The notes under the pieces were generated by a model. It did not search any database. It was not told where the DNA came from and worked only from the letters and a program-made list of their open reading frames with translations. Positions 2,816 to 62,487 of a stretch of 64,000 nt of DNA are shown here, one piece after another (positions within the stretch are counted from its first letter, which is position 1; each line of letters opens with the position of its first letter). Source of the DNA: an archaeon. Lineage in GTDB: Archaea > Nanobdellota > Nanobdellia > Pacearchaeales > GW2011-AR1. The stretch lies in assembly GCA_030605415.1 (NCBI GenBank), contig JAUWIJ010000006.1, positions 2,335-66,334 on the forward strand, written 5' to 3'. The translations under genes and the position numbers were made by a program.

Positions 2816-2853
2816 AAATACCGAAAATTTTATTAAGTTGTGATTCTTTTTGT

Positions 2854-3201: not shown

Positions 3202-3294
3202 AACGAATTCTAATTGTTAAAAATTTGATATTATAATTGTAATGTTTTAATAAAATCCAGAAAAGTTTTAATAGTTCGTTTATTTATTTTTTGT

Positions 3295-9605: not shown

Positions 9606-10001
9606 ATGAGTGTAAATATAAAAGAATATCAGGAGACGTGTAAGATGACGGCGAAGAAATGTGAGAATGATAAACTTGAGATTTGCAATTGGGGACTTGG
9701 GCTTGCGGGGGAAGCGGGTGATGTAGTGTCGTGTATTAAGAAAGTGGTGTTTCATGAAAATGAAATGATTAAAGATGGTATACGAGAAAATGTGGGAGAT
9801 ATGATGTGGTATACTGCGATGATTTGTAATTTTTATGATTGGAGTCTGGATGAAATTTTAGGTGAGAATTTAGAGAAGTTGGAAAAAAGATATGCAAGTG
9901 GCGGGTTTAGCTTGAAAGAAGCACAGAGAAAAGGAACGATGAAAAAATGGAGTGGGACAGATTCTGAAGTTAAAATTGTGGGAGGTGTGGAAAATGGTTA
10001 A
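9606..10001 (+). CDS. MazG-like nucleotide pyrophosphohydrolase
   Basis: GLAGEAGD...VGDMMWY...LEKLEKRY, the all-alpha NTP-PPase pattern. Confidence 0.75.
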   Translation: MSVNIKEYQETCKMTAKKCENDKLEICNWGLGLAGEAGDVVSCIKKVVFHENEMIKDGIRENVGDMMWYTAMICNFYDWSLDEILGENLEKLEKRYASGGFSLKEAQRKGTMKKWSGTDSEVKIVGGVENG

Positions 10002-14136: not shown

Positions 14137-14272
14137 GTGGAGTAGGGTTTGTGGTTATCTTCGACCGACTGCCCGATGGAATGAAGGCAAATTAGCAGAG
14201 TTCAAAGATAGGAAGATGTTTAGCGCGACGAGAACTGAGAACTCGGCGGACAGGATACCCTCACAGATATAA
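14114..14272 (+). CDS. NrdD glycyl-radical domain as a separate 52-aa ORF (or a frameshifted nrdD 3' end)
   Basis: MNRTKCEVWSRVCGYLRPTARWNEGKLAEFKDRKMF carries the RVxGY glycyl-radical motif. Its ATG overlaps the nrdD stop (ATGAATAG). The last ~16 codons read into repeat R3. Confidence 0.55.
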   Translation: MNRTKCEVWSRVCGYLRPTARWNEGKLAEFKDRKMFSATRTENSADRIPSQI

Positions 14273-14580
14273 GGGAGAGATGGGTTGGGGCACACTGAGT
14301 CCAGAACTGAGAACTCCAACGAGAACTTAGATCTCAGAACTGAGAACTCCAACGAGAACTCAGATACCCTCACAAATATAAGAGAAAAACAGGTTGGGGC
14401 ACGCCGACTCAGATCTCAGAACTCAGAGGGGAAAGGGGGCAACCGACAACCGACGGGGCAGAAACTCAGAGGGGGAACGGGGAAGCGGGGGTGGCTCTAA
14501 GAGCGAATGAAATGAACGGTCTGAGTTCTCAGAGCAAAGCGGTCTAAGTTCTCAGAGTGAAACGACCTGAGTTCTGAAGG
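14226..14580 (+). repeat. G-rich composite repeat (copy R3) with two M modules
   Basis: gagaactgagaactc words, two accctcaca...ttggggcac modules (14257-14293 and 14366-14402), a G-run core, and then complementary words (gagttctcag) ending in gtgaaacgacct. Confidence 0.85.
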
Positions 14581-17388: not shown

Positions 17389-17483
17389 AGATTTCTTTCT
17401 TTTTTAGAAAAAAAGAAATTTCTCTTCCGCCCAAAATGGCGTACCTCTGTTGAGGCAAAGTAGAAAAAACTTATTTTCCAAAT

Positions 17484-34003: not shown

Positions 34004-34100
34004 TGGGTGTTCGGTGTTCGGTGTTCGGGTGTTCGGGGCTTGGCGAGTTGAAGGTTGGGGGGAGGTTTTAGGATGGGAGGAATGGGCTGTAGTGGTTTTG
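34004..34100 (+). repeat. G-rich low-complexity repeat (copy R6)
   Basis: gggtgttcggtgttcggtgttcgggtgttcgggg...ggttggggggagg, following the rps12 stop after a short hairpin spacer (~18 nt). Confidence 0.75.
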
Positions 34101-34922: not shown

Positions 34923-34985
34923 ACTGTGCTTGTCTTGGGGTATTAGGCATTGGGGCGCTTTGCTGTTAGGTGTTAGGTTATTAGA
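34923..34985 (+). repeat. G/T-word low-complexity repeat (copy R7)
   Basis: cttggggtattaggcattggggcgctttgctgttaggtgttaggttattag begins right at the rps7 stop. Confidence 0.6.
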
Positions 34986-41725: not shown

Positions 41726-42292
41726 ATGTCAATACAGGTTAGAGAAAAAACTATTGAGGAAATTGAAAAGAAGTTGGGTGAGATGGGTACCGATTTGAAT
41801 AAGATTGATTATCTGGAATCGGTGTTGAAGAGCGCGAGTTTTAGTTTTGAGATTAAGCGGTTTTTGTGCAAGGAGTTGTCTGAGTTGTACGAGGAGCGGA
41901 AGATGTTTGAGCGGGCGGCGCGGGCGATGTCTAATAAGGCGGGGATGGAAATTACATTTAAAGATAAGATTGATAGTTATGTGACGGCGGCGGAATTGTT
42001 TTCGAGGATTGGGAAGGTTGACGACGCTGATGAAATGTTTGTCAGGGCTATGAGAGATGCGAACAGCGAGCAGAAGACAAAAGTTAAGTTGGCACGGAAG
42101 AATATTTATTTGATTTCGGCTAAGGAGTTGGAATCTAAGGGCAAGAGGGCGTCGGCGATTAAGTTTTATGAGAAATTAATTAAGATGAATCTTGAGGATG
42201 TTGAGAAAAATGAGATTAAGGAAAAATTATTAAGGACATATAAAGCACTTGGTTTATTTAGAGAGGCGCGACTGTTGGGAAGTAGTGAGTAG
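41726..42292 (+). CDS. Hypothetical helical (TPR-like?) protein
   Basis: 188 aa, helical repeat character. The last codons lie in repeat R8. Confidence 0.45.
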   Translation: MSIQVREKTIEEIEKKLGEMGTDLNKIDYLESVLKSASFSFEIKRFLCKELSELYEERKMFERAARAMSNKAGMEITFKDKIDSYVTAAELFSRIGKVDDADEMFVRAMRDANSEQKTKVKLARKNIYLISAKELESKGKRASAIKFYEKLIKMNLEDVEKNEIKEKLLRTYKALGLFREARLLGSSE

Positions 42293-42400
42293 TTGGTGGT
42301 GAGTAGTAAGTAGTGGGGACGGGGGACTACAAACTACCAACTACTAACTACCAACTACTAACTACCAACTACAAACTGAGAGTGGGAGTAGTTTGAGAGA
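42278..42400 (+). repeat. Composite repeat (copy R8), clear inverted-arm architecture
   Basis: gtagttggtggtgagtagtaagtagt, then ggggacggggg, then actacaaactaccaactactaactaccaactactaactaccaactac. The arms are approximately complementary. Confidence 0.85.
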
Positions 42401-44835: not shown

Positions 44836-44968
44836 AGTTTATCAGCTTCGCTGATAGTTGGGGGTTCGGTGTTGGGAGTTGGGAGTGGGGGCAGGGAGTG
44901 GGGGCAGGGAACGGGGAAGCGGGGAGCTACTAACTCCTAACTACCAACTCCTGACTGGCGAGGGGGGA
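44836..44968 (+). repeat. Composite repeat (copy R9) with a strong G4-type core
   Basis: Left end tcagcttcgctgatag, then gttgggagttgggagt words, then gggagtgggggcagggagtgggggcagggaacggggaagcgggg, then ctactaactcctaactaccaactcc. Confidence 0.85.
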
Positions 44969-47449: not shown

Positions 47450-47672
47450 GTGAATTTAGGTCAGCTTCGCTGATAGTTGGGAGTTGGGGGTTTGGTGTTG
47501 GGAGTTAGGGAAGCGGGCACAGTGAGATAGTTTTTGGTTGTCATCTCACGTGCCAAGGGCGGTTCTAAGAGCGAATGAAATGAGCGGTCTGAGTTCTCAG
47601 TTCTGAGTTCTACGTTTCGGGAATAAAACGACCTATATTTTCAAACTAATTATTTTAGAAATGTTTTTCTGT
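47450..47672 (+). repeat. Composite repeat (copy R10) plus smc-3'-end-like tail
   Basis: Left end aatttaggtcagcttcgctgatag. Right part is ctaagagcgaatgaaatgagcggtctgagttctcag...aaaacgacct followed by ttcaaactaattattttagaaatgttttt. Confidence 0.85.
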
Positions 47673-50600
47673 AATTGTTTTTTGACTTTTTTATTTTCAA
47701 TAATGTAAAAAAATATTATTGTTAGAATTGCAAAAATGAGACTTAGTTTTGAAAAGAAATTTAATAGAACTGTATCGTGTCCGCACATAGTTTCTCTTAT
47801 TCTGTCGTCGCATCCTATGTCATCACTTGTATAATTAACAATTATTTTATCGTTTGTTTCATTGCATTCCCCGATTATGTTTCCAAAATAAGAACAGCTC
47901 TTGCCATCGATTGTGCTTTTGAAATTGCATTGATTAAATGTGTCATCCCAAACACATCCATATTCTTGACTTGTATCGCAACTAAAAGCTACGCAATCAT
48001 ATAGGAGTGCTTTGTAACAAGGGTCTATCTCACATGTTTCTTCGTTGTTGTATCCTGAGCAGGTGTTTGGAATGATGCTGCAATTTAGGCAAGTTCCGTC
48101 ATCGACGGAGGAGGGAGGGCAGGAAGTTCCATCACAATCCCACCCACATAATCCGGATTTAGATTGACTCCAATCATTACATATTGAGTATAAGTTGAAA
48201 GTTGAACAAATTTCGGAGTAGGGGTCTGCACAATATCCCTCATCTGGAATTGTTATGAAAGGACTTGGACATTCGCATTTGTTTTCTTTGTCTATGACAT
48301 CTTCTCCGAAGAAATTAATTCGGTGCATATAGCCGTCGTCTTCGCTGTAGTAGCAATGAGTTACAAGAAAGGGTATTTGAAAAAGATTATAGTTATCTTC
48401 TTCTCCGCTATCTCCTGAAGAAAGTATTTCGGCTATTTGATTATTTGAATCTAAGTCGAGAACAACTAAATATTCTCCATAACTGAAATCAAAGTCAAAA
48501 GTAAGTTTGGTTACTTCGTCTTCACTGATATAAAAAATAGCAGTTGTTTCTTTTAAAACTTCCCCATCTGGATTACTTCCGTTGATTAATTTAATTTCTA
48601 CTTCATATGAATTTCCAGCTAATTCTTCCCATGCAGAATCACTTCCCTCTATATTCCAGCTCAATGTAATTTCTTCATTTTTTGTAGAATTTAAGTTATC
48701 TAAGAAAATAATTTCTGGGTCGAATCTAACTGGGTTTATGTTGAACCAGTTTAAAGCATCTTTGTCTACATCTAAAATAAAATCTAAATCCTTATTTTTT
48801 GTGATAATTCCATCATCTGTTTTTAGATTTGCTTGGGTATTTATTTTAAGATTTTCCAGTATGGAACTAGCTACCCAAGGGTCGTAAGTAGCGTTTATCC
48901 AAAAAGTTATTTCTTTTGATTGCAATGGGTATAGGTGGATTGTTTGAGAAGGGTTTTTTGAAAAGGAGTTTCCGTCCCAACTTAACATGAAATTGTTTTC
49001 GTCACTCCAACTTCCGATGGTTAGGTCGATGTCGTTTTCGTAAAAACTTGGGTTGAAGATAACTATTTTTTCGCTATCTATTTGACTACCTATTCCAAAG
49101 TTTAATGTGTCATCGTAAGAATATGCGATATCTCCTGCTTTGAAGTAGGGAGATTTCACTATGCTTGCTATTTTTTTGTCTTTGAATGGTTCTGTAAGTT
49201 TGACGGAGTATAATTCGATATAACATTGACCCCCTTCTTCCTTGTATTCGTTCTTTATGGGAATAATGATAGTGTGTTCGGTTGTACTACCTTCGGTTAA
49301 TTCGGTTTTTCCCATTTTGGCGAATTCTGCGTCATCTAATATGATAGTGAAGTTGTCTATTTTTTCGCCGTTAAGATATAGTTCGGCTAAGAGTGCGTAG
49401 TCGCTTGGTTTTATTACAGGAGTGTATGCGTAACTGGTTGCGACGAGTAATTCTGTTGTCATATTAAAGACTGGTTGATATATTCCTTCAGGCGTTTTTT
49501 CTAACTGTATTCTTGGGTCAAATCTTAAAAATCCTAAGTAATCTACTTCGTCAGAACCGATTGGAGGCCAAGAAGGAGCGTGACTAGAATATGGGCTATC
49601 TCCATATACATACCTACGTCCTCTGAGGTGAGGAAATACTCCACCTTCGGGAATTATCATATCGTAGTAAATTGTCTTTTCTTCTCCTGGTAAGAAATCT
49701 ACATAATCTGTTTTCCTACTATCAAAACCATGAATATCTGTTCCGGCAGATCCAACTCCTCCAGTCCACATTAGTTCGGAATATATTCCCCTTGTTATTC
49801 TTATATTATTGAGGGGTATGCCAAAATCGTTTTTGAATGTAAAAGCTGCACTTATTTTATTTCCAGAATTGGCAACAAAATAAGGAGATTTTCCTGTGTT
49901 TTCATTTTTAAAAGTTTGACTAATTGCTCTTGGTTTCAGCATATTTTTTGCATCCTGCATATCTGAATCGATATAGAACCAGTTACCGAAAGAAGAAAAT
50001 AATGACTGATGCCCGTTTTCTCTAATTAAAGAATAAGCATAAAAAATACTTGATGCAAAATTATCTAAATTCATAACGGTTGTTACAGTGGGTTCTGTAT
50101 TTGGATAAAATCCATTATTGTATAAAGTAGATGAAGAATGTTCAGAATCTACTTTATTATCAATATAAAAAATTCCATCTGTTCTAACCTGAGAAGAGGC
50201 TCCCGAATATCTTGAATATGAACTAGGGGTGTTATTATATTGTGAGAGAGAACTATAAGAATATCCAGTCATACTTTCGGTAACTATATTTTGCGTTAAA
50301 TTAAAATCGTGAGTTAGGTATGCACAATGACTTCCAAAATTATGATAGAAGGTTACGAAAAATATTCTATAATCTCCGACTTTGTAATTGCATTTTGTGT
50401 AAACTTTATTTTCCTCGTTAGATGCTCTTACTATTAGGTATGGGATTGTTGATGTTCCTCCATATTCAAAATTATTGTAGTAAGTTCTTGCGGGCTGATA
50501 AACAGTATATTCGTAACTTGGATTTTGTGTTTCCCCGAGAACAAGATTATTATTTGTAATTTTCAAAAAAATACCCGTTTGTGCCGATTCATCCCAATTA

Positions 50601-50740
50601 TTAAAATCTTCATCATTATAACTGAAAATACAATCCTTTACAGCCATCTTTTTTTGATAGGCACTAACACTTGAACTTAAAAATATAATTATAAATAAGC
50701 AAAAAGCAATAGCGCATATTTTTATTTTTTTAGGATGCAT
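47633..50740 (-). CDS. Large secreted/anchored surface protein (1035 aa), Cys-rich C-terminal region
   Basis: Signal peptide, a long beta-rich ectodomain, about 40 Cys in the last 250 aa, a TM anchor, and a tail ...KNISKIISLKI that copies the smc C-terminus. Confidence 0.6.
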   Translation of the reverse strand: MHPKKIKICAIAFCLFIIIFLSSSVSAYQKKMAVKDCIFSYNDEDFNNWDESAQTGIFLKITNNNLVLGETQNPSYEYTVYQPARTYYNNFEYGGTSTIPYLIVRASNEENKVYTKCNYKVGDYRIFFVTFYHNFGSHCAYLTHDFNLTQNIVTESMTGYSYSSLSQYNNTPSSYSRYSGASSQVRTDGIFYIDNKVDSEHSSSTLYNNGFYPNTEPTVTTVMNLDNFASSIFYAYSLIRENGHQSLFSSFGNWFYIDSDMQDAKNMLKPRAISQTFKNENTGKSPYFVANSGNKISAAFTFKNDFGIPLNNIRITRGIYSELMWTGGVGSAGTDIHGFDSRKTDYVDFLPGEEKTIYYDMIIPEGGVFPHLRGRRYVYGDSPYSSHAPSWPPIGSDEVDYLGFLRFDPRIQLEKTPEGIYQPVFNMTTELLVATSYAYTPVIKPSDYALLAELYLNGEKIDNFTIILDDAEFAKMGKTELTEGSTTEHTIIIPIKNEYKEEGGQCYIELYSVKLTEPFKDKKIASIVKSPYFKAGDIAYSYDDTLNFGIGSQIDSEKIVIFNPSFYENDIDLTIGSWSDENNFMLSWDGNSFSKNPSQTIHLYPLQSKEITFWINATYDPWVASSILENLKINTQANLKTDDGIITKNKDLDFILDVDKDALNWFNINPVRFDPEIIFLDNLNSTKNEEITLSWNIEGSDSAWEELAGNSYEVEIKLINGSNPDGEVLKETTAIFYISEDEVTKLTFDFDFSYGEYLVVLDLDSNNQIAEILSSGDSGEEDNYNLFQIPFLVTHCYYSEDDGYMHRINFFGEDVIDKENKCECPSPFITIPDEGYCADPYSEICSTFNLYSICNDWSQSKSGLCGWDCDGTSCPPSSVDDGTCLNCSIIPNTCSGYNNEETCEIDPCYKALLYDCVAFSCDTSQEYGCVWDDTFNQCNFKSTIDGKSCSYFGNIIGECNETNDKIIVNYTSDDIGCDDRIRETMCGHDTVLLNFFSKLSLIFAILTIIFFYIIENKKVKKQLQKNISKIISLKI

Positions 50741-51242
50741 ATTGTCCTGGATAAAATCTATCTGTGTCTTGCGGGATACTTATAGGTATGTTATTTATTT
50801 CTATTTCACAATTTTGTTTTAAATCATCATCTTCAATTTGCCAACACAAATCTAATCTTATATTCATTATCGCTATTTTGTAAAAACATTCATCTTTCAA
50901 ATTTTCTATTTTTTCACATTTTTCTTCGATGTCTGGACTTGAAAAAAGCAAGTTACAGTTTAAATCAAATTCTTCCATTTCTAAACATTTTTCCATCTCC
51001 GCAATATCTTGGATGTTTTTCTGTGGTTCCTCATTTTTTGCAATTATTGTTTCAGAATTATCTTCAGAATCATCTGTAAAAATAAAATAAAAAGTCGCAA
51101 TTAATCCTATAAAGATTATCGCTGGGACTATTAGCCAAATTAACTTTGATTTATTAAAATTGGAAATATGGTTTGTAGTCAAATCGGAATTATAGTTCTG
51201 AATTTTTTGTGGTTGCTTTTCCATTTTTACCTCTACTAACAC
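50730..51242 (-). CDS. Hypothetical membrane-anchored protein, co-oriented with the large surface protein
   Basis: One TM helix and a Cys-containing acidic ectodomain. Overlaps the downstream gene start by 11 nt. Confidence 0.45.
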   Translation of the reverse strand: MLVEVKMEKQPQKIQNYNSDLTTNHISNFNKSKLIWLIVPAIIFIGLIATFYFIFTDDSEDNSETIIAKNEEPQKNIQDIAEMEKCLEMEEFDLNCNLLFSSPDIEEKCEKIENLKDECFYKIAIMNIRLDLCWQIEDDDLKQNCEIEINNIPISIPQDTDRFYPGQYAS

Positions 51243-51332
51243 AGGTTGAAACTCTTTTTATAATTATTGTTTACACTTTTCAAGATTATAAATAATAGAA
51301 GCAATTAAAAACATCTTTTTCTTATTTAGTTT

Positions 51333-51809
51333 ATGAAAACTGTCGCTGAAAAACGAGGTCTGTCTCCTGTGATAGCGAGTGTTCTTATGATATTATTGGT
51401 TTTAGTTTTGGCAGCTATAATTTTTTTGTGGGCACGTGGTTTTATTAGTGAGCAGATTGAGAAATTTGGGAAGCCAGTTGAGGAGTTGTGTTCGTCGGTA
51501 GATTTCAGTGCAGTAATTGTCGATAGTGGAGGATATAGTATTTTGGAAATTGTCAATAGGGGGAATGTGGACATTAGTGCATTTGAGATTAAGATGTATT
51601 CTGGTGGAGATTCTGAAATTGTTAGTTTTGATATAGGTGTTCCTGTTGGAAAATCGGTAAGTAGCGAGGTTGTTTTGGACGTTATGCAAAATGGCAATGT
51701 TCCGGATAAGGTTGAAATTTTTCCTGTATTAACTGGAAATGTTCGTGGTAAGAGTTCATATAAAGTTTTTACTTGTCGTGAATATCCTACTCCTTTGTTA
51801 GATTTTTAG
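51333..51809 (+). CDS. Archaeal type IV pilin-like protein (class III signal peptide)
   Basis: MKTVAEKRGLSPVIASVLMILLVLVLAAIIF matches the KRG|LSPVIA prepilin-peptidase site plus the hydrophobic helix. Confidence 0.7.
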   Translation: MKTVAEKRGLSPVIASVLMILLVLVLAAIIFLWARGFISEQIEKFGKPVEELCSSVDFSAVIVDSGGYSILEIVNRGNVDISAFEIKMYSGGDSEIVSFDIGVPVGKSVSSEVVLDVMQNGNVPDKVEIFPVLTGNVRGKSSYKVFTCREYPTPLLDF

Positions 51810-51837
51810 AGAGACTATTTTTGAGATGTTTAGAAAA

Positions 51838-52101
51838 TTAATTGCTTTCAATGAGTCTTTCAATTTTTGCCTTTTCCCGAATGTTCAGTGAAATTTCTAA
51901 TCCATAATTAGTTGGTTTTGATAATAGTAGTCCTTTTTTAAGAAGTTCCTCAATAGCTTTTTTGACCTCTTTCCCACTTCTGAGAAATTCCGGGAGACCT
52001 TTTGGAAGATTATGAATACTCGTATGTTTATGTAGCCACATTCTTTTTCTGACGAGCTTTCTTAAAATAAATTTCTTTACATCTTCTCTTTCATTATTCA
52101 T
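51838..52101 (-). CDS. Small winged-helix-like protein
   Basis: 87 aa, basic, with a helix-turn-helix-like centre. Weak. Confidence 0.4.
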   Translation of the reverse strand: MNNEREDVKKFILRKLVRKRMWLHKHTSIHNLPKGLPEFLRSGKEVKKAIEELLKKGLLLSKPTNYGLEISLNIREKAKIERLIESN

Positions 52102-52224
52102 AATTTATTATAACTTAATATGTTTAAAAGATTTTAGTAATTGCCCCGATTTGATAATCGCCAAAATAATAATCTAAGTTAATAAAATAGAAATGTTTAA
52201 ATACGTCCTTATTTTAAAGAAAAA

Positions 52225-52557
52225 ATGGAACAAGGAGAACAGAGTGTTTTTGTAGAATATTTTGGAGGTTCGCCATATATTAAGATTTTGGATTTTTTAA
52301 TTCAGGGACAGGATTTTGATTATGGTATGACAGAAATAGCTCGGGGAGCAGGAGTTGGATGGAGTGCCTTTAGCGGTGTTTGGATAAAACTTGTAGATAA
52401 AGAGATGGTTGTTCCGACGAGAGAAATTGGGAATGCAAAATTATTTAAATTAAATAAAGAAAATCCTTTTGTAAAGAAATTGATAAAATTAGATTGGGAA
52501 ATAACCAAGTTTGAGAATGATAAATTTTTGAAGAATTCAGCTCAGGTTATTGTTTAG
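52225..52557 (+). CDS. Winged-helix transcriptional regulator-like protein
   Basis: YGMTEIARGAGVGWSAFSGVWIKLVDKEMVVPTREIGNAKLFKLN fits a wHTH. Confidence 0.5.
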   Translation: MEQGEQSVFVEYFGGSPYIKILDFLIQGQDFDYGMTEIARGAGVGWSAFSGVWIKLVDKEMVVPTREIGNAKLFKLNKENPFVKKLIKLDWEITKFENDKFLKNSAQVIV

Positions 52558-52960
52558 ATTTTTAAGCTAACTATTTTTTAGTAAATTTAGGTCAGCTTCG
52601 CTTCCAAAATTCAGAACTCAGAACTCAGTACTCAGAACTTAGACGAGATCTCAGATCTCAGTACTCAGAACTTAGAGGGGGAACTGGGAACTGGGGAGCG
52701 GGGAACTGGGGGTAGGGAGCGGGGGGCGGGGGCAGGGGGGCGTGCCCCCGGGGCAGGGCTTTCGGGAGTGGTAGTTCTAAGTTCTCAGAGCGAAGCGGTC
52801 TCAGTTCTAAGAGCGAATGAAATGAGCGGTCTCAGTTCTGGAACAAAGAGCAAAGCGGTCTCAGTTCTCAGAGTGGAACGGTCTCAGTTCTAAGTTCTAG
52901 GAGAAGTGAAACGACCTAAACTTTTAAACTAACTATTTTTTAGATGTTTTCCTGCATTAT
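52558..52960 (+). repeat. Largest composite repeat (copy R11) plus smc-3'-end-like tail
   Basis: Left end aatttaggtcagcttcgct, cagaactcag words, an ~80-nt G-run core, complementary ctcagttctaag words, gtgaaacgacct, and then cttttaaactaactattttttagatgttttcctgcat. Confidence 0.85.
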
Positions 52961-53046
52961 GCTTCCTTTTTTAGAAAAAAAGGTTCCCTGGCACTTCGGT
53001 GGGTGCCTTCTGCGGAAGGCAAATCAAAAAACTTATATCGGTGAAA

Positions 53047-53067
53047 GTAACATTAAAAATGTTTCAT
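53047..53067. promoter_or_regulatory. 21-nt palindromic motif (copy 4) with no ORF downstream
   Basis: Identical to copy 1. At the position where nusA and dnaG have their ATG, this locus reads ctg. Confidence 0.5.
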
Positions 53068-53451
53068 GTTTTTCTCATGTGTCCGAAAAAACTGTGGGAG
53101 CTTCGCGTTGTAATCAATACAGTTATACCCTTACAGATTTATCATTACTTTCGGTTGGACTGGAAATATAAATCAATCACGTCCCGTGGCGACGTTCTAA
53201 CAAAATGTCCACTTTGATAATTTTCAAACTTCTTCGTCACCCACAAGTAGACCGACAATATTTATATAATTTTAAATCATTAAGAATATGTTATGAAAAT
53301 ATGTAGATTTAAGATTCCTGCCAAAAAGGTAATGTTTTTGTCAAATTTTCATGCCAAAAAGATCATAGAAAAAGATTACATCCTCGACGATATAAATATT
53401 ATTTCCTGCCAAGATAGTAAGGTTTTTAAATAAAGAATCTTTATTATAATT

Positions 53452-54408
53452 ATGAGTCACATAGAAATTAAAAAAACAAAAGGCAATAATTATGCATCTT
53501 TTGTAAAGAAAGTAGTTTTTATGGGAGATCTTCATGTCATTAAAAAAAGCATGGGATTACAATCCTCAACTATTAATAAAGAAAAATTTTTATTCGATAA
53601 TCTTGATTTAATAACAAAAGAAGAATTTGATTTTAGAAAAAAATATTTAAATCAGATTAGCTCGAAAATTTCTCACAATGAAAAGTTGCCAGAAAAGATA
53701 GAGTTAGCTTCTATAAGATTAAATAATTTAATCGATGCTAAAAATTGTCAAGAAATGGTTGATATAGAATTTGCTAAAGAATTTATTTTTAATTCAAATA
53801 ATATTGAAGGATCTAAAATTCCTCCTCATGCCGTTAGGGAAATTATCGATAAAGGAGATACTAAATATTCTGACAAAAATGAGGTCAAGGAAGTAAAGAA
53901 TTCCATCGAGGCATTTAATTATTTGAAAAAATCCTTTAAATTTAATATTCTCTCTATGAAAAAACTTTATCATGTTTTGACAAAGGATTTAGAAATGCAA
54001 AAAGGGATTCTTTACCCAAGGGGTTTTAAAAAAGTTCAAAACGTAGTGGGCAATTCTATAACCACTGCTCCAGAAAATGTAGAATCTGAACTGATTGATT
54101 TATTAAAATGGTATAGAAAAAACAAGAATAAAATTCATCCTTTGATTTTAGCCTTTGAATTTCATAAGCGATATGAAGGAATCCATCCTTTTTTAGACGG
54201 CAATGGAAGAACTGGAAGATTGATTACGAATAAGATTCTTATGAGTAATGGATATCAGCCGATAATAGTTTATAAGGATAATAAAGAATCGTATTTCAAT
54301 TCTTTGGCTAAAGCTAATGAGAGTATATCAAAAAAATATTACCAGTTCATGCTGGAACAAACAAGAAAAAGTTATGATTTCTTAGAAAGTGTTATAGAAA
54401 AATATTAA
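53452..54408 (+). CDS. fic: Fic/DOC family protein
   Basis: Canonical Fic motif HPFLDGNGRTGR. Confidence 0.85.
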   Translation: MSHIEIKKTKGNNYASFVKKVVFMGDLHVIKKSMGLQSSTINKEKFLFDNLDLITKEEFDFRKKYLNQISSKISHNEKLPEKIELASIRLNNLIDAKNCQEMVDIEFAKEFIFNSNNIEGSKIPPHAVREIIDKGDTKYSDKNEVKEVKNSIEAFNYLKKSFKFNILSMKKLYHVLTKDLEMQKGILYPRGFKKVQNVVGNSITTAPENVESELIDLLKWYRKNKNKIHPLILAFEFHKRYEGIHPFLDGNGRTGRLITNKILMSNGYQPIIVYKDNKESYFNSLAKANESISKKYYQFMLEQTRKSYDFLESVIEKY

Positions 54409-54462
54409 ATATTTATCCACTCACCAAAGACACACATCTCTAGTCACGGCGGCTGGGGCATA

Positions 54463-57333
54463 CTAGATTTTTAAACTAACTATTTTTGAGATGTTTTCTT
54501 GCATACTTACTCCGTAGAGATTTTTGGCTTCGGAAATTAAAGTGTCGTTGTGAGTTATGACGATGTATTGACCCGTTGTTATGTATTTTTTGAGGAGGGC
54601 GGCAAGGAGTTCGGAGTTACGTTTGTCAAGGGCGGCATCAATTTCGTCGAAAACATAGAAGCAATATGGTTTGTATTCCTGGATTGCAAAAATCAGCGAG
54701 AGGGCGACCATTGTTTTTTCTCCTCCCGAGAGAGAAGTGACGTCGAAATATTTATTTCGTGAAACTTTTATTATAATATTTAATCCACCTTCAAACGGTC
54801 CTTTTTTGTTTTCGAGTTCGAGGAATACCTGACCTTTTCTGGAAAGCTGCGAGAAATTTCTCGTAAAATATTCGTTGATAACAGTTAAGGTTGTGATAAA
54901 TGATTTCTTTTTCTTTTTGTCAATTTCGGCGATGATATTTTGGATTTTATCTTTTTCTTTTGAAATTATTTCGACTTTGTTTTGAATTAGTTGGACTTGT
55001 TCGCCCACTTTATCAAACACTTCAAGTGCTCTTAAATTTACATTACCAAGTCTTGATATCCGAAATTGTGATTTTTGCAGTCGTTCTTTAATCTGATTAG
55101 TTGGCATAGCGAGGAGTTTGACTTGCCCTATTTCAGATAGCTCAGATTTTAATGAATCAATTTGAGCGGCGAATTGCGCTTTCTGAATTTTGTTGTGATT
55201 TATCTTATCTTCGATATTTTTTACAGTGTGTTGCATTCCTATAATATCAGTTTCCAAAACTTTTTGCTGGTCCTGCAATTCGTTTCTTTGATCGAAGAAT
55301 TTTTGCGCTTTTTCATATAATTTTTGTTCTTCGATTTCTTTTTTAACTGCGTCTTTATCTTTCTCTGTAATTTGCGATTCTATTTTTCGCAACTCTATTT
55401 CGGATTCTTCTATATCTCTCATGACTGATTTCAACTCAACAGAAAGTCGATTAATTTCCTTTCTTTTTATTGTAATTTCTGTATCGACATCCATATCAGC
55501 GAATGAGATTTCCTGAAGGGTTAGTCTTGCTTCGTCATATTTTTCTTCAATATTTTTTAAGTTTTCGTATTTACTTCTTATTAAATGAATTTTTTCATTG
55601 GTCGATTTTAATTCTTCTTTTATTTCTGTTTGATTTTTTGTGATTCGTTTTATTTGCTCTTTTTTTTCTTCCGAATTTTTTAGTTTTATTTGATCAATGT
55701 CAAGTTCGTTAAGTTTTGTCCTCAGCGTCGACAATCTTTCCTTGAAGTGGTTTGTTTTTTTGACTTCTTCAGTTCGTATTTTAATATTTTTTTCAACTTC
55801 ATATTTTGCTGATTCTATTTTTGCACTTGCCGTTGTTGATATTTTGTGTTTGTGACTGTCTTCAACATTTTGTTTACAGATGGGGCAGAATTGTAATTGA
55901 GTAATATCGGTTTTCAGTTTCTCCTCTCTTTTTATATTCATTTCTAAGATTGCGTTTCTCTTTTCTCTTTCAAGGATTTCTCTTTCAAGATTTGATATTT
56001 GCTCAATTACCGTTTCAATTTTTGATTTTGTTTCGATATTCAATTCTTTGTTTGTTTCAGTTGATTTTGAATATTTTATTTCGTTGAATGATGAAGTGAT
56101 TGTTTGTTCGATTAGTTGAATTTCTTTAGATGATTCAATGAGGAATTTTTCTTTTTGAGATTTTTGATTTTCTAAGGTTGATAAGTCTGATTTTAAAATG
56201 TAGAATTTTCTTCTTTGCTGTTCGAGGATGTCGAATTTTTCCTGAAGGATTTTTTGTTGTTTTTGTTGTTCTTTTATTTCCGGAGAGGCAGTTTGTATTT
56301 TTGATATTTCGAGATTTAGTTTTTCTATTTTGTTTTTGAAGTTAGAGATTTTTTCTTTTCCCTGAATCATTCTATTGTTGAAGTTTTCACGACGGACATC
56401 TAATCCTGCAAGGTCTGCTTTTAGGTCTGAGATTTCCCGATGTAATACTTCCTGTTCGTTACTGGTTGAAGATTGAATTTGTTTATTTATTATTAGTATT
56501 TTGTTTTGCAGGTTATTAACGCTAGAATTTTTTTCATAAATTTGTTTTCGGAGTTTCTCGATTTCAGAGTTGTAATCTTCGATAGTTTTGTTTATTTCAG
56601 AAGTTTCTTTTTCTTTGCTATTTATTGTTTTTGCTATTAGAGTTGCCTTGCATTGTTTGATTGTAGTTTCGAGTTTTTGATAAGAGATTGCTTCTTGTCT
56701 TTCTTTGTCGAGATTTTTCAAATATGATGTTCGTTCTTTGAGGACAGCTGTGACTTCTTTTAGTTTTTCGTCGGTCTTTTCAAATTCTTTCAGAGATTTT
56801 TGTTTTCGTGTTTCGTAAATTGAGATACCTGCTACATCTTCTATTATTTTTCGCCGTTCTTCCGGAGTTGCTTGAACTAAAGATTGTATTTCGCCTTGGA
56901 GCACAATGTTAAATCCGTTTGGGTCGATGCCAGCTTGAGCCATAAGTTCCAAGATGTCTTGTCGGGTTTTTGTTTGTCCGTTTATTCTATAAATTGATTG
57001 TCCGGTTTTTCGGACGATTCGTTTAATTGTAACTTCTGATGTGTCGATACCGAATGTTTTATCGGAGTTGTCGAAGACTAATTCTACTGATGCTTCTTGT
57101 GAGCCTTTGTATGTTTTATTTCCTGAGAAAAGTAAGTTTGCGGCTTTTGCGGCCCGAATTGATTTAATTGAGAGTCGACCGAGGACAAAGCAGAGTGCGT
57201 CGGTGACGTTTGATTTTCCACTCCCGTTTGGTCCGACGACAACGTTCATTGTGTTTTCCAGTGGTATCTCGGTTTTTCGTGCGAAAGATTTGAACCCATG
57301 CATCACCATCTTTTTTATATATGTCATGGGCAT
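54463..57333 (-). CDS. smc: SMC-family ATPase (956 aa) with a central CxxC instead of a recognisable hinge
   Basis: SMC head (GFKSF...GPNGSGKSN, VLQGEI...PEERR, LSGGEKT, DEIDAALD). Coiled-coil throughout, with CPIC at residues 483-486 of 956. Confidence 0.8.
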   Translation of the reverse strand: MPMTYIKKMVMHGFKSFARKTEIPLENTMNVVVGPNGSGKSNVTDALCFVLGRLSIKSIRAAKAANLLFSGNKTYKGSQEASVELVFDNSDKTFGIDTSEVTIKRIVRKTGQSIYRINGQTKTRQDILELMAQAGIDPNGFNIVLQGEIQSLVQATPEERRKIIEDVAGISIYETRKQKSLKEFEKTDEKLKEVTAVLKERTSYLKNLDKERQEAISYQKLETTIKQCKATLIAKTINSKEKETSEINKTIEDYNSEIEKLRKQIYEKNSSVNNLQNKILIINKQIQSSTSNEQEVLHREISDLKADLAGLDVRRENFNNRMIQGKEKISNFKNKIEKLNLEISKIQTASPEIKEQQKQQKILQEKFDILEQQRRKFYILKSDLSTLENQKSQKEKFLIESSKEIQLIEQTITSSFNEIKYSKSTETNKELNIETKSKIETVIEQISNLEREILEREKRNAILEMNIKREEKLKTDITQLQFCPICKQNVEDSHKHKISTTASAKIESAKYEVEKNIKIRTEEVKKTNHFKERLSTLRTKLNELDIDQIKLKNSEEKKEQIKRITKNQTEIKEELKSTNEKIHLIRSKYENLKNIEEKYDEARLTLQEISFADMDVDTEITIKRKEINRLSVELKSVMRDIEESEIELRKIESQITEKDKDAVKKEIEEQKLYEKAQKFFDQRNELQDQQKVLETDIIGMQHTVKNIEDKINHNKIQKAQFAAQIDSLKSELSEIGQVKLLAMPTNQIKERLQKSQFRISRLGNVNLRALEVFDKVGEQVQLIQNKVEIISKEKDKIQNIIAEIDKKKKKSFITTLTVINEYFTRNFSQLSRKGQVFLELENKKGPFEGGLNIIIKVSRNKYFDVTSLSGGEKTMVALSLIFAIQEYKPYCFYVFDEIDAALDKRNSELLAALLKKYITTGQYIVITHNDTLISEAKNLYGVSMQENISKIVSLKI

Positions 57334-58122: not shown

Positions 58123-58173
58123 GTAATTATATATTAGTTAGATTTAAAAGTCTTGAGTATGATTTCTTTCCAT

Positions 58174-58355
58174 AGCGAGATGGAGCAGTCTGGTCAGCTC
58201 GTGAGGCCCATAACCTCGTTTCGGATTAGAAATCCTCACTAAGTGTTCATCCTTCACACTTAAAGGTCGTGTGGTTCAACCGTCGCTTCGGAGAAGCTCG
58301 GCCGAAATCTTACAGATTTCTAAAAGTCCATAAAGAACTTTTTATCACGCTCTAT
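58174..58355 (+). pseudogene. Degenerate tRNA-Met paralog carrying two intron-like insertions
   Basis: The first 44 nt are identical to tRNA-Met. A 45-nt insert follows the anticodon stem, and cassette B lies in the T loop (58280-58343). The 3' acceptor strand lacks cgc, so it cannot pair. Confidence 0.65.
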
Positions 58356-58401
58356 TTTTCAAAAGAAAGCTTTATAATGCGTTTTTATCATTTAATATTA
58401 T

Positions 58402-58477
58402 AGCGAGATGGAGCAGTCTGGTCAGCTCGTGAGGCCCATAACCTCAAGGTCGCGTGGTTCAAATCCCGCTCTCGCTA
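58402..58477 (+). tRNA. tRNA-Met (anticodon CAU), possibly initiator-like (A1:U72)
   Basis: Acceptor AGCGAGA/TCTCGCT, anticodon arm TGAGG-CCCATAA-CCTCA, T arm GCG(T)GG-TTCAAAT-CCCGC with one extra nucleotide. Confidence 0.85.
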
Positions 58478-58591
58478 TTTTGTTTTGAGCAGGATTTGAA
58501 ACTAAGCGACTCGCGTGGCGAAAACCTTTGCTCGAATTTTTTGTTATGTTGTTTTCTAAAACTATATAAGTTTTATTTTGTTTATATTTTT

Positions 58592-59182
58592 ATGAAAAAT
58601 TCCAATTCCTATGTTCTCGCGGGAGTGTTCTTTATTTTTTTGCAAATTATTGTGATAATCAGAAATTTGTATTTTGATTTTGCGTATTTCTTTTGGTTCT
58701 GCGATTTCGTGCCGATAATTTTGGCCCTGGCATTTTTCCTAAAAAAAGATTACGTCATAAAAGGGATTGTTAACATTGGATTATTTCCCCAAATTGTTTA
58801 TATATTTGGCTTTATTATAAAAATATTTTTGGGAATTTCTTTTCTGAGTGAGGTGGAATTACTTTTGACTTATAATATATTTATAATTTTTTCATCCGTT
58901 TTTGTTCATCTAGCTACGATAATTGCATTTGGTTTTACATACAAAGTTAGGCCGACGAAAGAGACGCTTGTTTATTCTTTGCTGGGATTGGTTTTGATTT
59001 ATCTTGTGATGATTTTTTTTACAGCTCCTGTAGATGATATCAATTATGTCTTTTTGTTAAGTAACTTTTTCGGAGTTGATGTGTTTTCGGTTTTTTGGAT
59101 TCCTATAACTTTTTTACTTGTAGTCCTCCCGACTCAGGGATTTCAATATTTAATTTATAGGTATTTTGGGAAACATAATTAG
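58592..59182 (+). CDS. Hypothetical polytopic membrane protein
   Basis: Start trimmed to MKNSNSY because the track ORF start overlaps the tRNA. About 6 hydrophobic helices. Confidence 0.5.
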   Translation: MKNSNSYVLAGVFFIFLQIIVIIRNLYFDFAYFFWFCDFVPIILALAFFLKKDYVIKGIVNIGLFPQIVYIFGFIIKIFLGISFLSEVELLLTYNIFIIFSSVFVHLATIIAFGFTYKVRPTKETLVYSLLGLVLIYLVMIFFTAPVDDINYVFLLSNFFGVDVFSVFWIPITFLLVVLPTQGFQYLIYRYFGKHN

Positions 59183-59255
59183 GGATTTGGGGTTAGGTAT
59201 TTGGGATTTGAGGGGAAGGGAACGGGACAAGATAGGGATTGGGAGCGGGGATTTG
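59180..59255 (+). repeat. G-rich low-complexity repeat (copy R13)
   Basis: gggatttggggttaggtatttgggatttgaggggaagggaacgggacaagatagggattgggagcgggg begins on the stop codon. Confidence 0.8.
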
Positions 59256-60627: not shown

Positions 60628-62487
60628 ATGAAGTTAGCGATTATTCACAAGGAGAAATGTAAGCCGACGATTTGCGGGCATGAGTGCAAGAAATATTGTC
60701 CCGTCGAGAAAAAGGAAGCGGATAGTTGTGTCACTATCGATGGCAAAGCGAAGATTGATGAGAACGCGTGTGTTGGGTGTGCAATTTGCGTGAAGCGGTG
60801 TCCGTTTGGTGCGATTGATATTGTTAATTTGCCGTCGGTGAGCGAGAAGGATATGGTGCATAGGTATGGAGCGAATGGATTTGCGTTGTATGGTTTGCCG
60901 ACGCCGAAAGATGGTTCGGTTCTTGGGTTGCTTGGAAGAAATGGAATTGGAAAGTCTACAGCTGTGAAAATTTTAGCTGGAACAGAGAAGATAAATTTAG
61001 GAAAAAAGTTTGCAAGCGATGAGGACATTAAAAAATTTTTTAAGGGTAATGAACTTTTGAGATATTTTGAGGGCTTGGATAAAAAAAAGGTTTCGTATAA
61101 GCCACAGAACTTGTCGCAGTTAGCGGTTGATGTGGGAGTTATGAAACTATTGTTACAGCGAGTTGTTTCTAATGCACCCAAGGGTGTACCTCCTGCCCAG
61201 ATGGCATCTGCTAACGCAGACAAGGTCGGCAAGATTAAACAATTGGCTGAAAGACTTGGCATCTCGTATGTTCTTGGAAATCGAATGGATAAATTATCGG
61301 GCGGCGAGTTACAAAAGGTTGCAATTTTAGCGGCGAGTTTAGGAGAGGCAAGTATTTATTTTTTTGATGAGCCTTTGGCATTTTTGGATATTGGAGAAAG
61401 ATTGAGGGTTTCGGATTTTATTAAGGAGATTGCAAAAGGTAAGTCTGTTATTGTTGTCGAGCACGATTTGTTGATTTTGGATTATTTGACGGATTATTTG
61501 AATGTTTTTTTTGGGGGGCAGGGGGCGTTCGGAATTGTATCGGGAGTTAAAAGTTCGGGGGTTGGAGTTAATGCTTATTTAAATGGGTTTTTGAAAGAGG
61601 AAAATATGCGGATTCGAGATAAAGTTTTGAGTTTTAATTTTACAAAAAATCCTGCTATGTCTGGAGCAAAGATTGCTGAGTGGCCTGCTTTTGATTTGAA
61701 ATTCGGGTTGGGTTTTGAATTAAAGGTTAATGCTGGCGAAATTCATGAGAACCATGTGATTGGAATTTTGGGAAAGAATGGAACTGGGAAGACTTCGTTT
61801 GTGCGGGCACTGGCGGGAGAAATTAAGGTTCGCAAGTTCGGAGTTACCCTCACAAATTCAAAACAAAAATTGGTTGGGGCAGACTCTCGGAGTTCGGAGT
61901 TTGAAGAGGGAGAAAAGGAAAGGCTGGATTTGGATTTGAGCATTTCATATAAACCTCAATATTTATTTAGCGAAAGCGAAGAGATTGTTAAGGACATTAT
62001 ATTTAGGGAAAAGATAAATAAAAAATTGTCGTCGGTGTTTAATCTTGGGGTTTTAGTTGGAAAGAAATTGAAGGAGTTATCGGGCGGCGAGTTGCAGAGA
62101 TTTAGTGTTGCGAGGTGCCTGGCGAAAGATGCGGATGTTTATTTAATTGATGAGCCGTCGGCGTATTTGGATGTTGAGGAAAGGATTTCGGTTGCGAAGG
62201 CGATTAAGGATATTATGGTTGAAAAAGGAAAGACGGCTTTTGTTGTAGACCACGATTTGTTGCTTGTTTCATATTTGGCGGATTCGATTATTAATTTCTC
62301 GGGAGAGAGTGGAGTTCGTGGGAAGGCATCGGAAATTAGTGGATTCGAGGAAGGGATTTCTGAATTATTGAAGAGTTTGGATGTTACTCTAAGGAAGGAT
62401 AAAGAAAGTGGCAGACCGAGGATTAATAAAAGAGGTTCGGTTTTGGACAGGGAGCAGAAAGCCAAGGGAAAGTGGGCTGTGTTTTAG
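60628..62487 (+). CDS. abce1: ABCE1 (RNase L inhibitor-type ribosome recycling ATPase) with an in-frame repeat insert
   Basis: N-terminal 2x[4Fe-4S] Cys motifs, two ABC domains (GRNGIGKST, GKNGTGKTS, 2x LSGGELQ), and extra codons between LAG and SYKPQ. Confidence 0.9.
   Translation: MKLAIIHKEKCKPTICGHECKKYCPVEKKEADSCVTIDGKAKIDENACVGCAICVKRCPFGAIDIVNLPSVSEKDMVHRYGANGFALYGLPTPKDGSVLGLLGRNGIGKSTAVKILAGTEKINLGKKFASDEDIKKFFKGNELLRYFEGLDKKKVSYKPQNLSQLAVDVGVMKLLLQRVVSNAPKGVPPAQMASANADKVGKIKQLAERLGISYVLGNRMDKLSGGELQKVAILAASLGEASIYFFDEPLAFLDIGERLRVSDFIKEIAKGKSVIVVEHDLLILDYLTDYLNVFFGGQGAFGIVSGVKSSGVGVNAYLNGFLKEENMRIRDKVLSFNFTKNPAMSGAKIAEWPAFDLKFGLGFELKVNAGEIHENHVIGILGKNGTGKTSFVRALAGEIKVRKFGVTLTNSKQKLVGADSRSSEFEEGEKERLDLDLSISYKPQYLFSESEEIVKDIIFREKINKKLSSVFNLGVLVGKKLKELSGGELQRFSVARCLAKDADVYLIDEPSAYLDVEERISVAKAIKDIMVEKGKTAFVVDHDLLLVSYLADSIINFSGESGVRGKASEISGFEEGISELLKSLDVTLRKDKESGRPRINKRGSVLDREQKAKGKWAVF
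61831..61908 (+). repeat. M-module-containing insert inside ABCE1 (copy R14)
   Basis: gttcggagtt, then accctcacaaattcaaaacaaaaattggttggggcag, then actctcgga, then gttcggagtt. Encodes VRKFGVTLTNSKQKLVGADSRSSEFE in frame. Confidence 0.75.

Follow-up and report, generated by a model that had tools for sequence, protein, structure and literature searches.

The subject of this study is a 64,000-nt window of contig JAUWIJ010000006.1 and the G-rich low-complexity inserts dispersed in it, foremost the element at 52558-52960. The window is an AT-rich archaeal chromosome segment with a GC content of 36%. It encodes RpoB, RpoA', EF-2, EF-1alpha, the RFC large subunit, DnaG, ABCE1, S12 and S7, and also an anaerobic ribonucleotide reductase with intein domains. 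The closest ABCE1 homologues belong to metagenome-assembled genomes (MAGs) labelled Pacearchaeota, Nanoarchaeota or 'archaeon'.

The G-rich inserts are a mosaic of heptamer arrays, an X-type element and a 42-nt unit, module A, and not one family. An earlier reading of the sequence alone (the sequence-only reading) had listed 13 loci as a single family of palindromic elements. All 13 are present where it placed them, with GC contents of 45-69% versus 36% for the window, but the single family gives way to at least three kinds of unit nested in each other. Two of the loci are in-frame gene inserts that it had overlooked as such, at 7536-7655 (120 nt) and 61831-61908 (78 nt).

Anatomy of the G-rich inserts

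The focal element is of X type and occupies 52585-52921 on the + strand, the strand of every G-rich insert and module A copy of the window located below. It comprises a left arm of (AGAACTC)n at 52611-52676, a G core at 52677-52769 built of (GGGGNNN)-type heptamers and a right arm at 52770-52912, and a G-quadruplex (G4) scan placed a motif at 52677-52740. Its RNA fold of -126.8 kcal/mol compares with -107.2 for shuffles, with z scores of -3.8 on the + strand and -6.9 on the - strand. A 24-nt direct repeat flanks it at 52558-52581 and, with 2 mismatches, at 52920-52943, both members being copies of the SMC 3′ end. The interval of the sequence-only reading extends to 52960 because the right-hand SMC 3′-end copy lies at 52920-52957.

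Generally, the X type joins the (AGAACTC)n left arm to the G core, which is followed by a right arm whose 23-29-nt units hold the complement GAGTTCT. It measures 180-340 nt, has 9-nt inverted termini and is found in two copies, 52585-52921 and 47454-47636. The termini are ATTTAGGTC...GACCTAAAC in the former and ...GACCTATAT in the latter, and each pair matches at 8 of 9 positions. The second copy has the left terminus ATTTAGGTCAGCTTCGCTGATAG and the right module ...GAATGAAATGAGCGGTCTGAGTTC...AAACGACCTA, and its right end overlaps the stop codon of a minus-strand open reading frame (ORF) of 1035 aa. A variant without the left terminus, at 14226-14580, holds two module A copies in register inside its AGAACTC array, and this architecture recurs in genome L008.

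Neither X-type copy has a short target-site duplication, and a parent insertion sequence with X-type ends was not seen in the window or the related loci. In a scan of viral contigs, the X-type left end gave 2 matches and the right end 1, all of them chance matches in unrelated coding sequence, and module A gave 0. The shared ends reported by the sequence-only reading are real. Repeat clustering found the left end TCAGCTTCGCTGATAG twice, at 44842 and 47461, and once more in part, at 52592 (family D16), and the right end GGTTCTAAGAGCGAATGAAATGAGCGGTCT at 14489, 47557 and 52799 (family D10).

The Y type consists of GGGATTT/GGTATTT or AGTTGGG arrays, a core GGGAACGGGGAAKCGGGG and then (ACTACCA/ACTACTA/CTAACTC)n, with copies at 2662, 17714, 42278 and 44836. 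The first (2662-2815) combines GGGATTT/GGTATTT arrays, the core GGGAACGGGGAATCGGGG and ACTAACT/ACTACAA words (families D2 and D9). The second (17714-17958) contains one module A copy (17827-17868) and starts where a dUTPase gene breaks off after its first 83 nt. The third (42278-42400), reading (AGTAGTG/GGTGGTG)n, GGGGACGGGGG, (ACTACCA/ACTACTA)n, is the best hairpin of all, and the ORF upstream stops 14 nt within it. The fourth (44836-44968) carries the X-type left-end hairpin TATCAGC-TTC-GCTGATA and a G4 motif at 44874-44924.

These inserts are built of short tandem words, as the sequence-only reading had it. Tandem Repeats Finder detected heptamer arrays at 12 of the 13 loci, and the remaining one, 59180, has a 14-nt unit. 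The heptamers include GGGATTT, GGTATTT, TCGGGGT, ACAGCCG, AGAACTC, ACTACCA, AGTTGGG, GGTGTTC, TCGGAGT and others, and ATTTGGG, AGTTGGG, AGAACTC, ACTACAA, GTAGTGA and TTCGGTG recur in other genomes. Over 297 kb of the window and DPANN loci, 7 is the commonest tandem period, with 47 arrays versus at most 18 for any other.

The (GGGGNNN)n cores, for example GGGGAAC/GGGGAGC, supply the G4 pattern. The pattern of four G3+ runs with N1-7 spacers is indeed present, in 8 regions on the + strand and 0 on the - strand, and the example singled out earlier corresponds to 44874-44924. Shuffling in 200-nt blocks would lead one to expect ~1.1 such regions. Six of the 8 fall inside the listed loci.

The claim that each element can fold into a long hairpin stands for 3 of the 13 loci on the + strand and fails for most others against dinucleotide shuffles. 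Those three are 42278 (z -5.3), 52582 (z -3.8) and 44836 (z -3.0). Two loci, 47450 (z -3.5) and 14226 (z -2.6), beat the shuffles on the - strand only, while 2662, 34004 and 34923 fold worse and 7536, 59180 and 61831 no better. Where arms do pair, an excess of G in the left one makes the pairs G·T and not G-C. This enrichment could come from selection on a single strand of + polarity or from a genome C-to-T bias.

The composite at 20323-20485 contains (GGTATTC)3, a module A copy (20363-20404) and a short hairpin (family D18). The array (GGTGTTC)n at 34004-34100, between the S12 and S7 genes, is G/T-rich with a G-rich tail and without a complementary arm (z +1.6), and the short G/T-rich block of TGTTAGG words at 34923-34985 begins at the S7 stop codon. 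A further G/T-rich array (GGGATTT/GGTATTT, GGGGAAG...) at 59180-59255 begins on the stop codon of ORF 58454-59182 and has a G4 motif at 59203-59226.

Three inserts lie in frame within genes. The 120-nt block at 7536-7655, in the PP-loop ATPase gene 7061-7969, reads (GTTCGGG)n ... (ACAGCCG)5 and encodes 40 aa rich in Gly, Ser and Thr. The ABCE1 gene carries the insert 61831-61908, in which a (GTTCGGA)3 array is split by module A (61845-61886). It also carries a second insert of ~69 nt at 61163-61231, module B, with the form GCACCCAAGGGTG^TACCTCCTGCCCAGATGGC...GACAAGGTCGGC.

A metagenome scan with the G-core pattern GGGAACGGGGAAKCGGGG gave at least 120 matches and was non-specific, with none DPANN-like among the matches listed. 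Of those listed, 45 were on contigs below 45% GC and the others on higher-GC contigs. Most of the low-GC matches listed were GGGAAT/GGGGAAC satellite arrays after a common GGCTATCTTTAAAACG lead-in, or unrelated coding sequence. Many contigs among L047, L049, L052, L057, L061 and others of low GC show GGCTATCTTTAAAACG, then GGGGAAC/GGGGAAT arrays and then GGGGAATCTTTAAAA repeats. Several of these contigs are from one sample series (Ga0126337-39), and their repeats, unrelated to those of the window, look like a satellite or a mobile-element end.

The absence of the inserts from the described archaeal repeat classes was borne out, in that the literature searched held no archaeal description of them and Rfam no match. 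At gathering thresholds Rfam returned tRNAs alone, and permissive thresholds gave nothing credible around the elements. As to the integrity of the contig, ENA contig NODE_4697 and a Logan contig of another run are identical in sequence to the window and include the complete 47450 element. Both end within the AGAACTC array of the focal 52558 element.

The 42-nt module A

Module A is 42 nt long and consists of TACCCTCACA, 18 variable nt, GTTGGGGCA and a 5-nt tail (GACCC, CGCCG, GACTC and others). It begins with TACC and lacks inverted termini. A pattern search found 5 exact copies in the window versus 0 expected, at 14256-14297, 14365-14406, 17827-17868, 20363-20404 and 61845-61886, all on the + strand. 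A covariance-model search gave six strong matches and a weak one at 53126, again all on the + strand. It thereby added a diverged copy at 17483-17524 and a possible decayed copy at 53126-53162 (E 0.15).

The unit is not confined to the window. In a scan of one genome per prokaryotic species, we found 38 exact-pattern copies at 32 loci in at least 13 MAGs. These MAGs are labelled Pacearchaeota, Nanoarchaeota, Woesearchaeota or archaeon, and the contexts of the copies are mutually unrelated.

Module A inserts as an exact unit, without target duplication, into heptamer arrays, its own interior and genes. Excision of the 42 nt from the window sequence restores perfect (GTTCGGA)3 and (AGAACTC)n arrays, and the copies at 14365 and 17827 are in register within their heptamer arrays. 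As 42 is both 6 x 7 and 14 x 3, the heptamer register and the reading frame are both kept. The flanks of 41 distinct copies have only A or T at +1, directly right of the unit, in common (39 of 41).

Insertion into itself has a fixed point. Tandem copies occur, and so does double and triple nesting, the latter in L024, which always breaks the unit at nt 23|24 (L024, L031, L032 and L033). At the ABCE1 site, the relative L003 has the window insert plus one extra 42-nt copy nested at 23|24 with the flank not duplicated, and L006 has an empty site and a 573-aa protein. Three assemblies of different samples agree exactly on the ABCE1 insert and the copy nested in it. Module A is also found at the ^ of module B in four other genomes (L013, L018, L029 and L037).

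We counted 14 clear in-gene copies with at least 60 open codons on each side. Of these, 7, 3 and 1 fall in the three sense frames and 3 lie antisense, with the result that no single peptide is kept. Ten of the 11 sense copies have an A-rich module A interior, and all 3 antisense copies a T-rich one (Fisher p ~0.01). The coding strand is thus A-rich in either orientation and the read-through peptide hydrophilic either way. Judged from their frames and composition, the in-gene copies appear to be translated, with selection removing the poorly tolerated ones, and not to be spliced out.

The host genes of in-frame inserts are those of ABCE1, the PP-loop ATPase and IleRS (antisense) and further long ORFs. 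In this clade, ABCE1 proteins measure between 562 and 637 aa, and 8 or more positions carry in-frame inserts. Repeat-derived peptides recur in them, namely GIPSKEGT.VPSSSG and APKGVPPAQMASANADKVGK, the latter being module B. In the window ABCE1, the module A insert lies within residues 397-426 of the query, a stretch directly after the Walker-A region of the second ATPase domain and does not align to Pyrococcus ABCE1. In L003, the minus-strand IleRS gene contains (TTCGGTG)3 and a 39-nt module A variant, antisense, that give an in-frame peptide.

A different mini-insert is present in the ABCE1 gene of a 78%-identical relative (L159, 4715-4775). It is GCATACCCTCTAAGGAGGGAACTAAAGTTCCATTTTCATCGGG, encoding the peptide GIPSKEGTKVPFSSG, with a TACCCTC head as in module A and two small hairpins. 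Other relatives have this peptide too, at three different positions in ABCE1.

Other descriptions of module A were tried and rejected. A nature as stable hairpin or repetitive extragenic palindromic (REP) sequence was dismissed on folding, which surpasses shuffles neither as DNA nor, in context, as RNA. As an archaeal bulge-helix-bulge intron, module A fails in that the flanks of the 41 copies lack complementarity to its ends and the copies are open in frame. The likeness between A-rich and T-rich interiors, considered as an interior inversion, is only that of low complexity.

Strand polarity and turnover among relatives

At all 13 loci G exceeds C on the + strand, also beside minus-strand genes, as had been claimed. 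The GC skew of the window is +0.29 and is still 0.29 with the 13 loci masked, and the pooled skew of the loci, 0.35, is slightly above this background of 0.29. The uniform polarity is hence the remarkable point, not the skew value of the loci. Genes on the + strand have a skew of ~+0.37 and those on the - strand ~+0.05, so that a skew component of ~+0.2 is independent of gene direction. Per kb, the skew is +0.2 to +0.5 across the window, and relatives without the repeats show likewise.

The same holds beyond the window. Module A never occurs in both orientations at one locus. Among loci with genes on both strands, the module A strand has a positive gene-direction-independent skew in 16 of 17, with a mean of +0.24. 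Antisense copies inside minus-strand genes keep the chromosomal orientation (L003, L010, L023 and L034). The strand bias is tied to the chromosome rather than to transcription.

Three syntenic relatives were compared with the window, L003 over 43.2-64 kb, L032 over 2.3-10.3 kb and L161 over 8.9-32.9 kb. Nucleotide identity to L003 is 82-92% over long syntenic stretches and 82% across ABCE1. That to L161 is 79-95%, mostly 80-88%, over the aligned stretches, with 18.5 kb being syntenic. The presence/absence differences that the sequence-only reading had proposed to look for are seen as empty or differing sites in L003, L006, L032 and L161.

Several composites are insertions that altered genes. 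The 14226-14580 site is 374 nt in the window versus 38 nt in L161, and the last codons of a 42-aa ORF are replaced. The 17714 composite truncates the dUTPase gene, of which only the first 83 nt are left (17631-17713), whereas it is intact in L161 at 7068-7484. The 20323 composite lies 44 nt into the dCMP-deaminase/kinase gene, and a 47-nt duplication (20277-20323 and 20483-20529) restores the gene start.

Other sites differ as well. The stretch 2669-3266, an element and a small ORF, is absent from L032. At the same codon position of the PP-loop ATPase gene, the window has heptamer arrays and L032 a nested module A pair. L003 has no more than a 25-nt rudiment where the window has the 44836 element, and ~80 nt of unrelated sequence where it has the 59180 element. 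The element at 47454-47636 is missing from L003, the sequence being unrelated from there on.

In L161, no heptamer array and no module A were found in the 18.5 syntenic kb, and its GC skew is 0.28, matching the window. Such differences between relatives argue against a conserved cis-regulatory role and for a recent proliferation.

The surroundings of the focal element seem to have been rebuilt repeatedly. The SMC 3′-end sequence is in five copies, at 47633, 51799, 52554, 52916 and 54463 (families D5 and D8), and 47.45-54.46 kb of the window is replaced in L003 by an unrelated 408 nt including a 78-aa gene. The minus-strand 1035-aa ORF ends in ...NISKIISLKI, compared with ...NISKIVSLKI of SMC. 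From these three facts, the focal element would therefore sit in a hotspot of serial insertions, each carrying or duplicating the SMC 3′ end.

Within 47450-54466 are the 1035-aa ORF, which is Cys-rich and membrane or secreted, a weak pilin-like ORF, a Fic/DOC protein and small ORFs. The region looks like a serial cassette insertion at the SMC 3′ end.

Other regions of the window show further rearrangements. The dUTPase remainder is replaced by the composite and an unrelated 169-aa Cys-rich ORF (17991-18500). The dCMP-deaminase/kinase gene has an inserted AAA_14/DUF4143 ATPase gene (18911-20149) directly upstream. Some 70 nt of promoter and gene start stand in two copies, at 18700-18769 and 20226-20296, and are single-copy in L161 (7481-7551).

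Two copies of the tRNA-Met 5′ half, reaching to the anticodon loop, lie at 58173-58217 and 58401-58445. Between the two is a 77-nt element, 58275-58351, that is 83% identical to 25419-25495 downstream of tRNA-Lys, where the tRNA-Lys 3′ end is also partly repeated (25383-25495). The tRNA-Met region may represent a tRNA gene interrupted by large introns, or else what is left of an integration site.

NrdD (1389 aa), the anaerobic ribonucleotide reductase encoded by 9952-14121, shows a LAGLIDADG domain and a match to an intein-splicing domain. Its L161 orthologue has 1035 aa and lacks what corresponds to 10517-11491, so at least one intein differs between the close relatives. A palindromic box GTAACATTAAAAATGTTTCATG is found four times in the window, at 33005, 33490, 42890 and 53047. 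The first three are ~10-25 nt upstream of a + gene start and the fourth ~380 nt before the + ORF 53452, and the box is probably a common promoter or operator motif.

Explanations and known systems

We consider it probable that the inserts are a recently expanding mobile or expandable repeat mosaic. Our overall reading, with a probability of roughly 0.6, is that they represent repeat DNA, selfish or neutral, whose proliferation in this Pacearchaeota-like DPANN lineage is recent. The chances are about even that insertion and expansion are coupled to one replication strand. As to the enzyme class, a trans-acting HUH-type end-specific nuclease/ligase is the foremost candidate, though less likely than not.

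By this account, heptamer arrays would grow from a small lineage-wide vocabulary, and complementary arm words would make a long hairpin in some composites. Insertion and array expansion would use the single-stranded DNA that one replicative strand offers at the fork. An HUH-type end-specific nuclease/ligase may act in trans with the logic of IS200/IS605 or IS91/Helitron elements, which leave the target unduplicated, have asymmetric ends and are strand-specific. Copies would persist where they are tolerated, as past stop codons, in intergenic spacers and in translated hydrophilic surface loops. Any 3′-end formation or G4 effects would be by-products.

A number of observations weigh against this account, several of them on the enzyme. 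Among 40 window ORFs, Pfam identified neither a transposase nor an integrase domain; the matches were instead to an AAA_14/DUF4143 ATPase and a Fic protein and, weakly, to a pilin-like domain. Searches by tblastn in 373 kb of related DNA, using IS608 TnpA, IS200 consensus and RAYT queries (approximate sequences), yielded nothing credible. Their Y1/HUH matches were sub-threshold and outside ORFs, a weak negative that covers only the 373 kb and not most of the genome. No protein travelling with the composites was found in an all-against-all BLASTP of 18 small or unannotated window ORFs.

The ends of module A give little hold to a known enzyme either. As single-stranded DNA, its minimum free energy is 0 to -2.5 kcal/mol, with z scores of -0.2 or higher on both strands. 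Hairpin recognition of the IS200/IS605 or REP type is thus not evident. The 41 copies have no conserved 5′ target sequence, which speaks against simple membership of the HUH group. Moreover, the copies were gathered by an exact-terminus pattern, so the invariance of their termini is partly ascertainment.

The remaining objections concern the process. Long imperfect target duplications of 24, 47 and ~70 nt surround the insertions at three sites, and there are further duplications of the tRNA-Met 5′ half and, in L019, of a tRNA 3′ end around a module A copy. Standard transposition chemistry does not explain the 24-70-nt duplications, which would be compatible with flap ligation or template switching at the replication fork. 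Slippage could yield the heptamer arrays alone, without mobility. Lastly, we infer replication direction from GC skew, and the window has no origin.

These points bear on a bolder version that we think rather improbable, in which module A and the mosaics are the archaeal counterpart of the cyanobacterial very small mobile repeats, move by an undescribed mechanism and remodel surface loops of essential proteins. One form of it would need a novel end-specific single-stranded-DNA enzyme. The other would be transposase-free and replication-coupled, for example by ligation of unprocessed structured Okazaki flaps or by templated gap filling. Such a replication-coupled process could also make the long 24-70-nt target duplications.

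Less likely again is that the inserts are functional cis-acting 3′-end signals, with hairpins and/or RNA or DNA G-quadruplexes of the sense strand that terminate transcription or stabilise mRNA 3′ ends and for whose sake the repeats would be retained. The sequence-only reading had most copies start at or near a + strand stop codon. For six of the 13 loci, a + strand frame of 80 codons or more stops no further than 20 nt away, and 3 further loci adjoin a small or truncated ORF, so 'most' is not borne out. The confinement of the G4 pattern to the + strand and the strong hairpins of three composites fit such a function. In bacteria, G-rich heptamers likewise favour the first 50 bp past a gene's stop codon on its sense strand (PMC4692102).

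Against this function, the orthologous sites in close relatives are empty or different, with L161 having none in 18.5 kb. Two blocks and many module A copies are within ORFs, one composite truncates a gene, and another required a 47-nt duplication to save a gene start. Most loci are no better hairpins than shuffles. The polarity is kept in or near minus-strand genes, where the transcript is not the G-rich strand. The stop-codon association is better explained by insertion tolerance in a compact genome than by a 3′-end function.

Local simple-sequence expansion, in which heptamers slip under a G-over-C bias without mobility or common origin, is quite improbable. It would account for the tandem heptamers that are the bulk of the sequence and for a pooled locus skew near the background, and slippage has been proposed for the over-representation of bacterial heptamers (PMC4692102). 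It is already contradicted by the complex termini and the 40-50-nt non-tandem modules common to distant loci (families D1, D2, D3, D10 and D16). Nor does it produce a 42-nt unit that is an exact presence/absence difference, nested, in at least 13 genomes. Heptamer words are common to several genomes, and whole composites are 150-370-nt insertions relative to the relatives.

Short introns of tRNA, rRNA and a few mRNAs are spliced in archaea, and module A has constant ends and resides in essential genes. Module A and the in-gene blocks might then be RNA-level features, either bulge-helix-bulge introns excised by the splicing endonuclease of archaea or small RNA genes, which we regard as very improbable. 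A bulge-helix-bulge, with two 3-nt bulges around a 4-bp helix, requires the 5′ end of the intron to pair with the 3′ exon and the two exons with each other, whereas the flanks of the 41 copies share only the A/T at +1. The in-gene copies are always open in the host frame, and their interior composition follows the orientation of the host gene. The absence of an Rfam family, permissive thresholds included, and folding no better than shuffles likewise oppose this explanation.

Assembly chimeras or contaminant sequence, suggested by GC-rich islands in an AT-rich contig and by short-read contigs that break inside one array, have a negligible chance, given the same junctions and the complete 47450 element in two independent assemblies from different runs, the identity of the ABCE1 insert and its nested copy in three assemblies from different samples, and the reading frame kept by the in-gene copies.

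In kind, the inserts are varieties of known repeats in a new host group, with unusually clean diagnostic features. The STRR sequences are heptanucleotide tandem repeats of cyanobacteria, with three heptanucleotides in Calothrix PCC 7601, and Xanthomonas and Nostoc have G-rich GGGNATC and GGGGA(C/T)T repeats (Rehm et al. 2015, PMC4692102). The window arrays resemble both in the 7-nt unit, the G4-spaced G-runs, the dispersed and mostly non-coding distribution and the strong variation in length and sequence among close relatives (PMC4692102). The preference of those repeats for positions past stop codons compares with 6 of 13 loci within 20 nt of a + stop in this one window. They differ in the archaeal host with a very small AT-rich genome and the absolute strand polarity. 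They also differ in having many words as complementary arms round a G core and in-frame arrays in essential genes. The G4 of the window is a sequence pattern only.

Module A resembles the cyanobacterial small dispersed repeats (SDRs). The SDR4-6 of Nostoc punctiforme, in the work of Elhai et al. in 2008, are reportedly 21-27 nt long and located within tandem heptamer repeats, nested in other repeats. SDR5 inserts precisely into HIP1 in that species (PMC4390886). Like the SDRs, module A is too small to encode anything and inserts precisely, and it is under 100 nt and present or absent between relatives, as in the window versus L003 and L006. It differs from them in its 42-nt length, its archaeal host, its frequent in-frame insertion in conserved genes and its orientation tied to GC skew.

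The Rickettsia palindromic elements (RPE) are also non-autonomous and are read through in frame in unrelated housekeeping genes, as additional peptide segments with which the protein fold can cope (PMC10969869), as module A presumably is. The RPE are palindromic and ~100-150 bp long, whereas module A has 42 nt and no stable hairpin. No RPE is known to nest at a fixed internal site.

The REP/BIME/REPIN-RAYT sequences and the IS200/IS605-derived PATEs are similarly short, abundant, clustered in mosaics as BIMEs, without target duplication and asymmetric and strand-specific in behaviour, as HUH chemistry on single-stranded DNA at the replication fork would make them. Unlike REP and REPIN sequences, module A has no stable stem-loop and no GTAG or CGTC 5′ tag (PMC3733652) and is not extragenic. 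No RAYT or TnpA was found in the 373 kb, and no conserved target tetranucleotide at module A. With IS200/IS605 elements, and thus PATEs, module A shares the lack of target duplication and the asymmetric ends, but it is without subterminal hairpins or a fixed 4-5-nt target 5′ of the left end.

The X type is comparable with MITEs (miniature inverted-repeat transposable elements; PMC10969869) in its 180-340 nt, non-coding sequence, hairpin fold and 9-nt inverted termini. It differs in having no short target-site duplication, no parent insertion sequence found and a heptamer-array interior instead of a deleted transposase gene, and an imperfect 24-nt duplication brackets the focal copy. The archaeal genomes named in a 2024 review of prokaryotic MITEs are those of Sulfolobus, Halobacterium, Haloquadratum and Desulfurococcus, along with 'several other' ones, and no DPANN is listed (PMC10969869). 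We found no DPANN examples of such repeats in the literature searched.

The mobility of 20-40-nt repeats has been a puzzle since the cyanobacterial descriptions, and the archaeal system is a second, independent case. Its features are testable: the 42-nt unit is exact, its point of self-insertion is fixed, the target is not duplicated, the polarity is all but absolute and relatives of 83-90% nucleotide identity differ in presence or absence. The arrays break short-read assemblies, so the contiguity of the MAGs is affected. In-frame inserts affect gene calling, protein-length comparisons and phylogenomic alignments of the clade.

The reduced DPANN genomes tolerate, and are reshaped by, in-frame inserts in ABCE1, IleRS and the PP-loop ATPase. 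If the polarity does track replication, the elements could serve as markers of replication direction in uncultured archaea.

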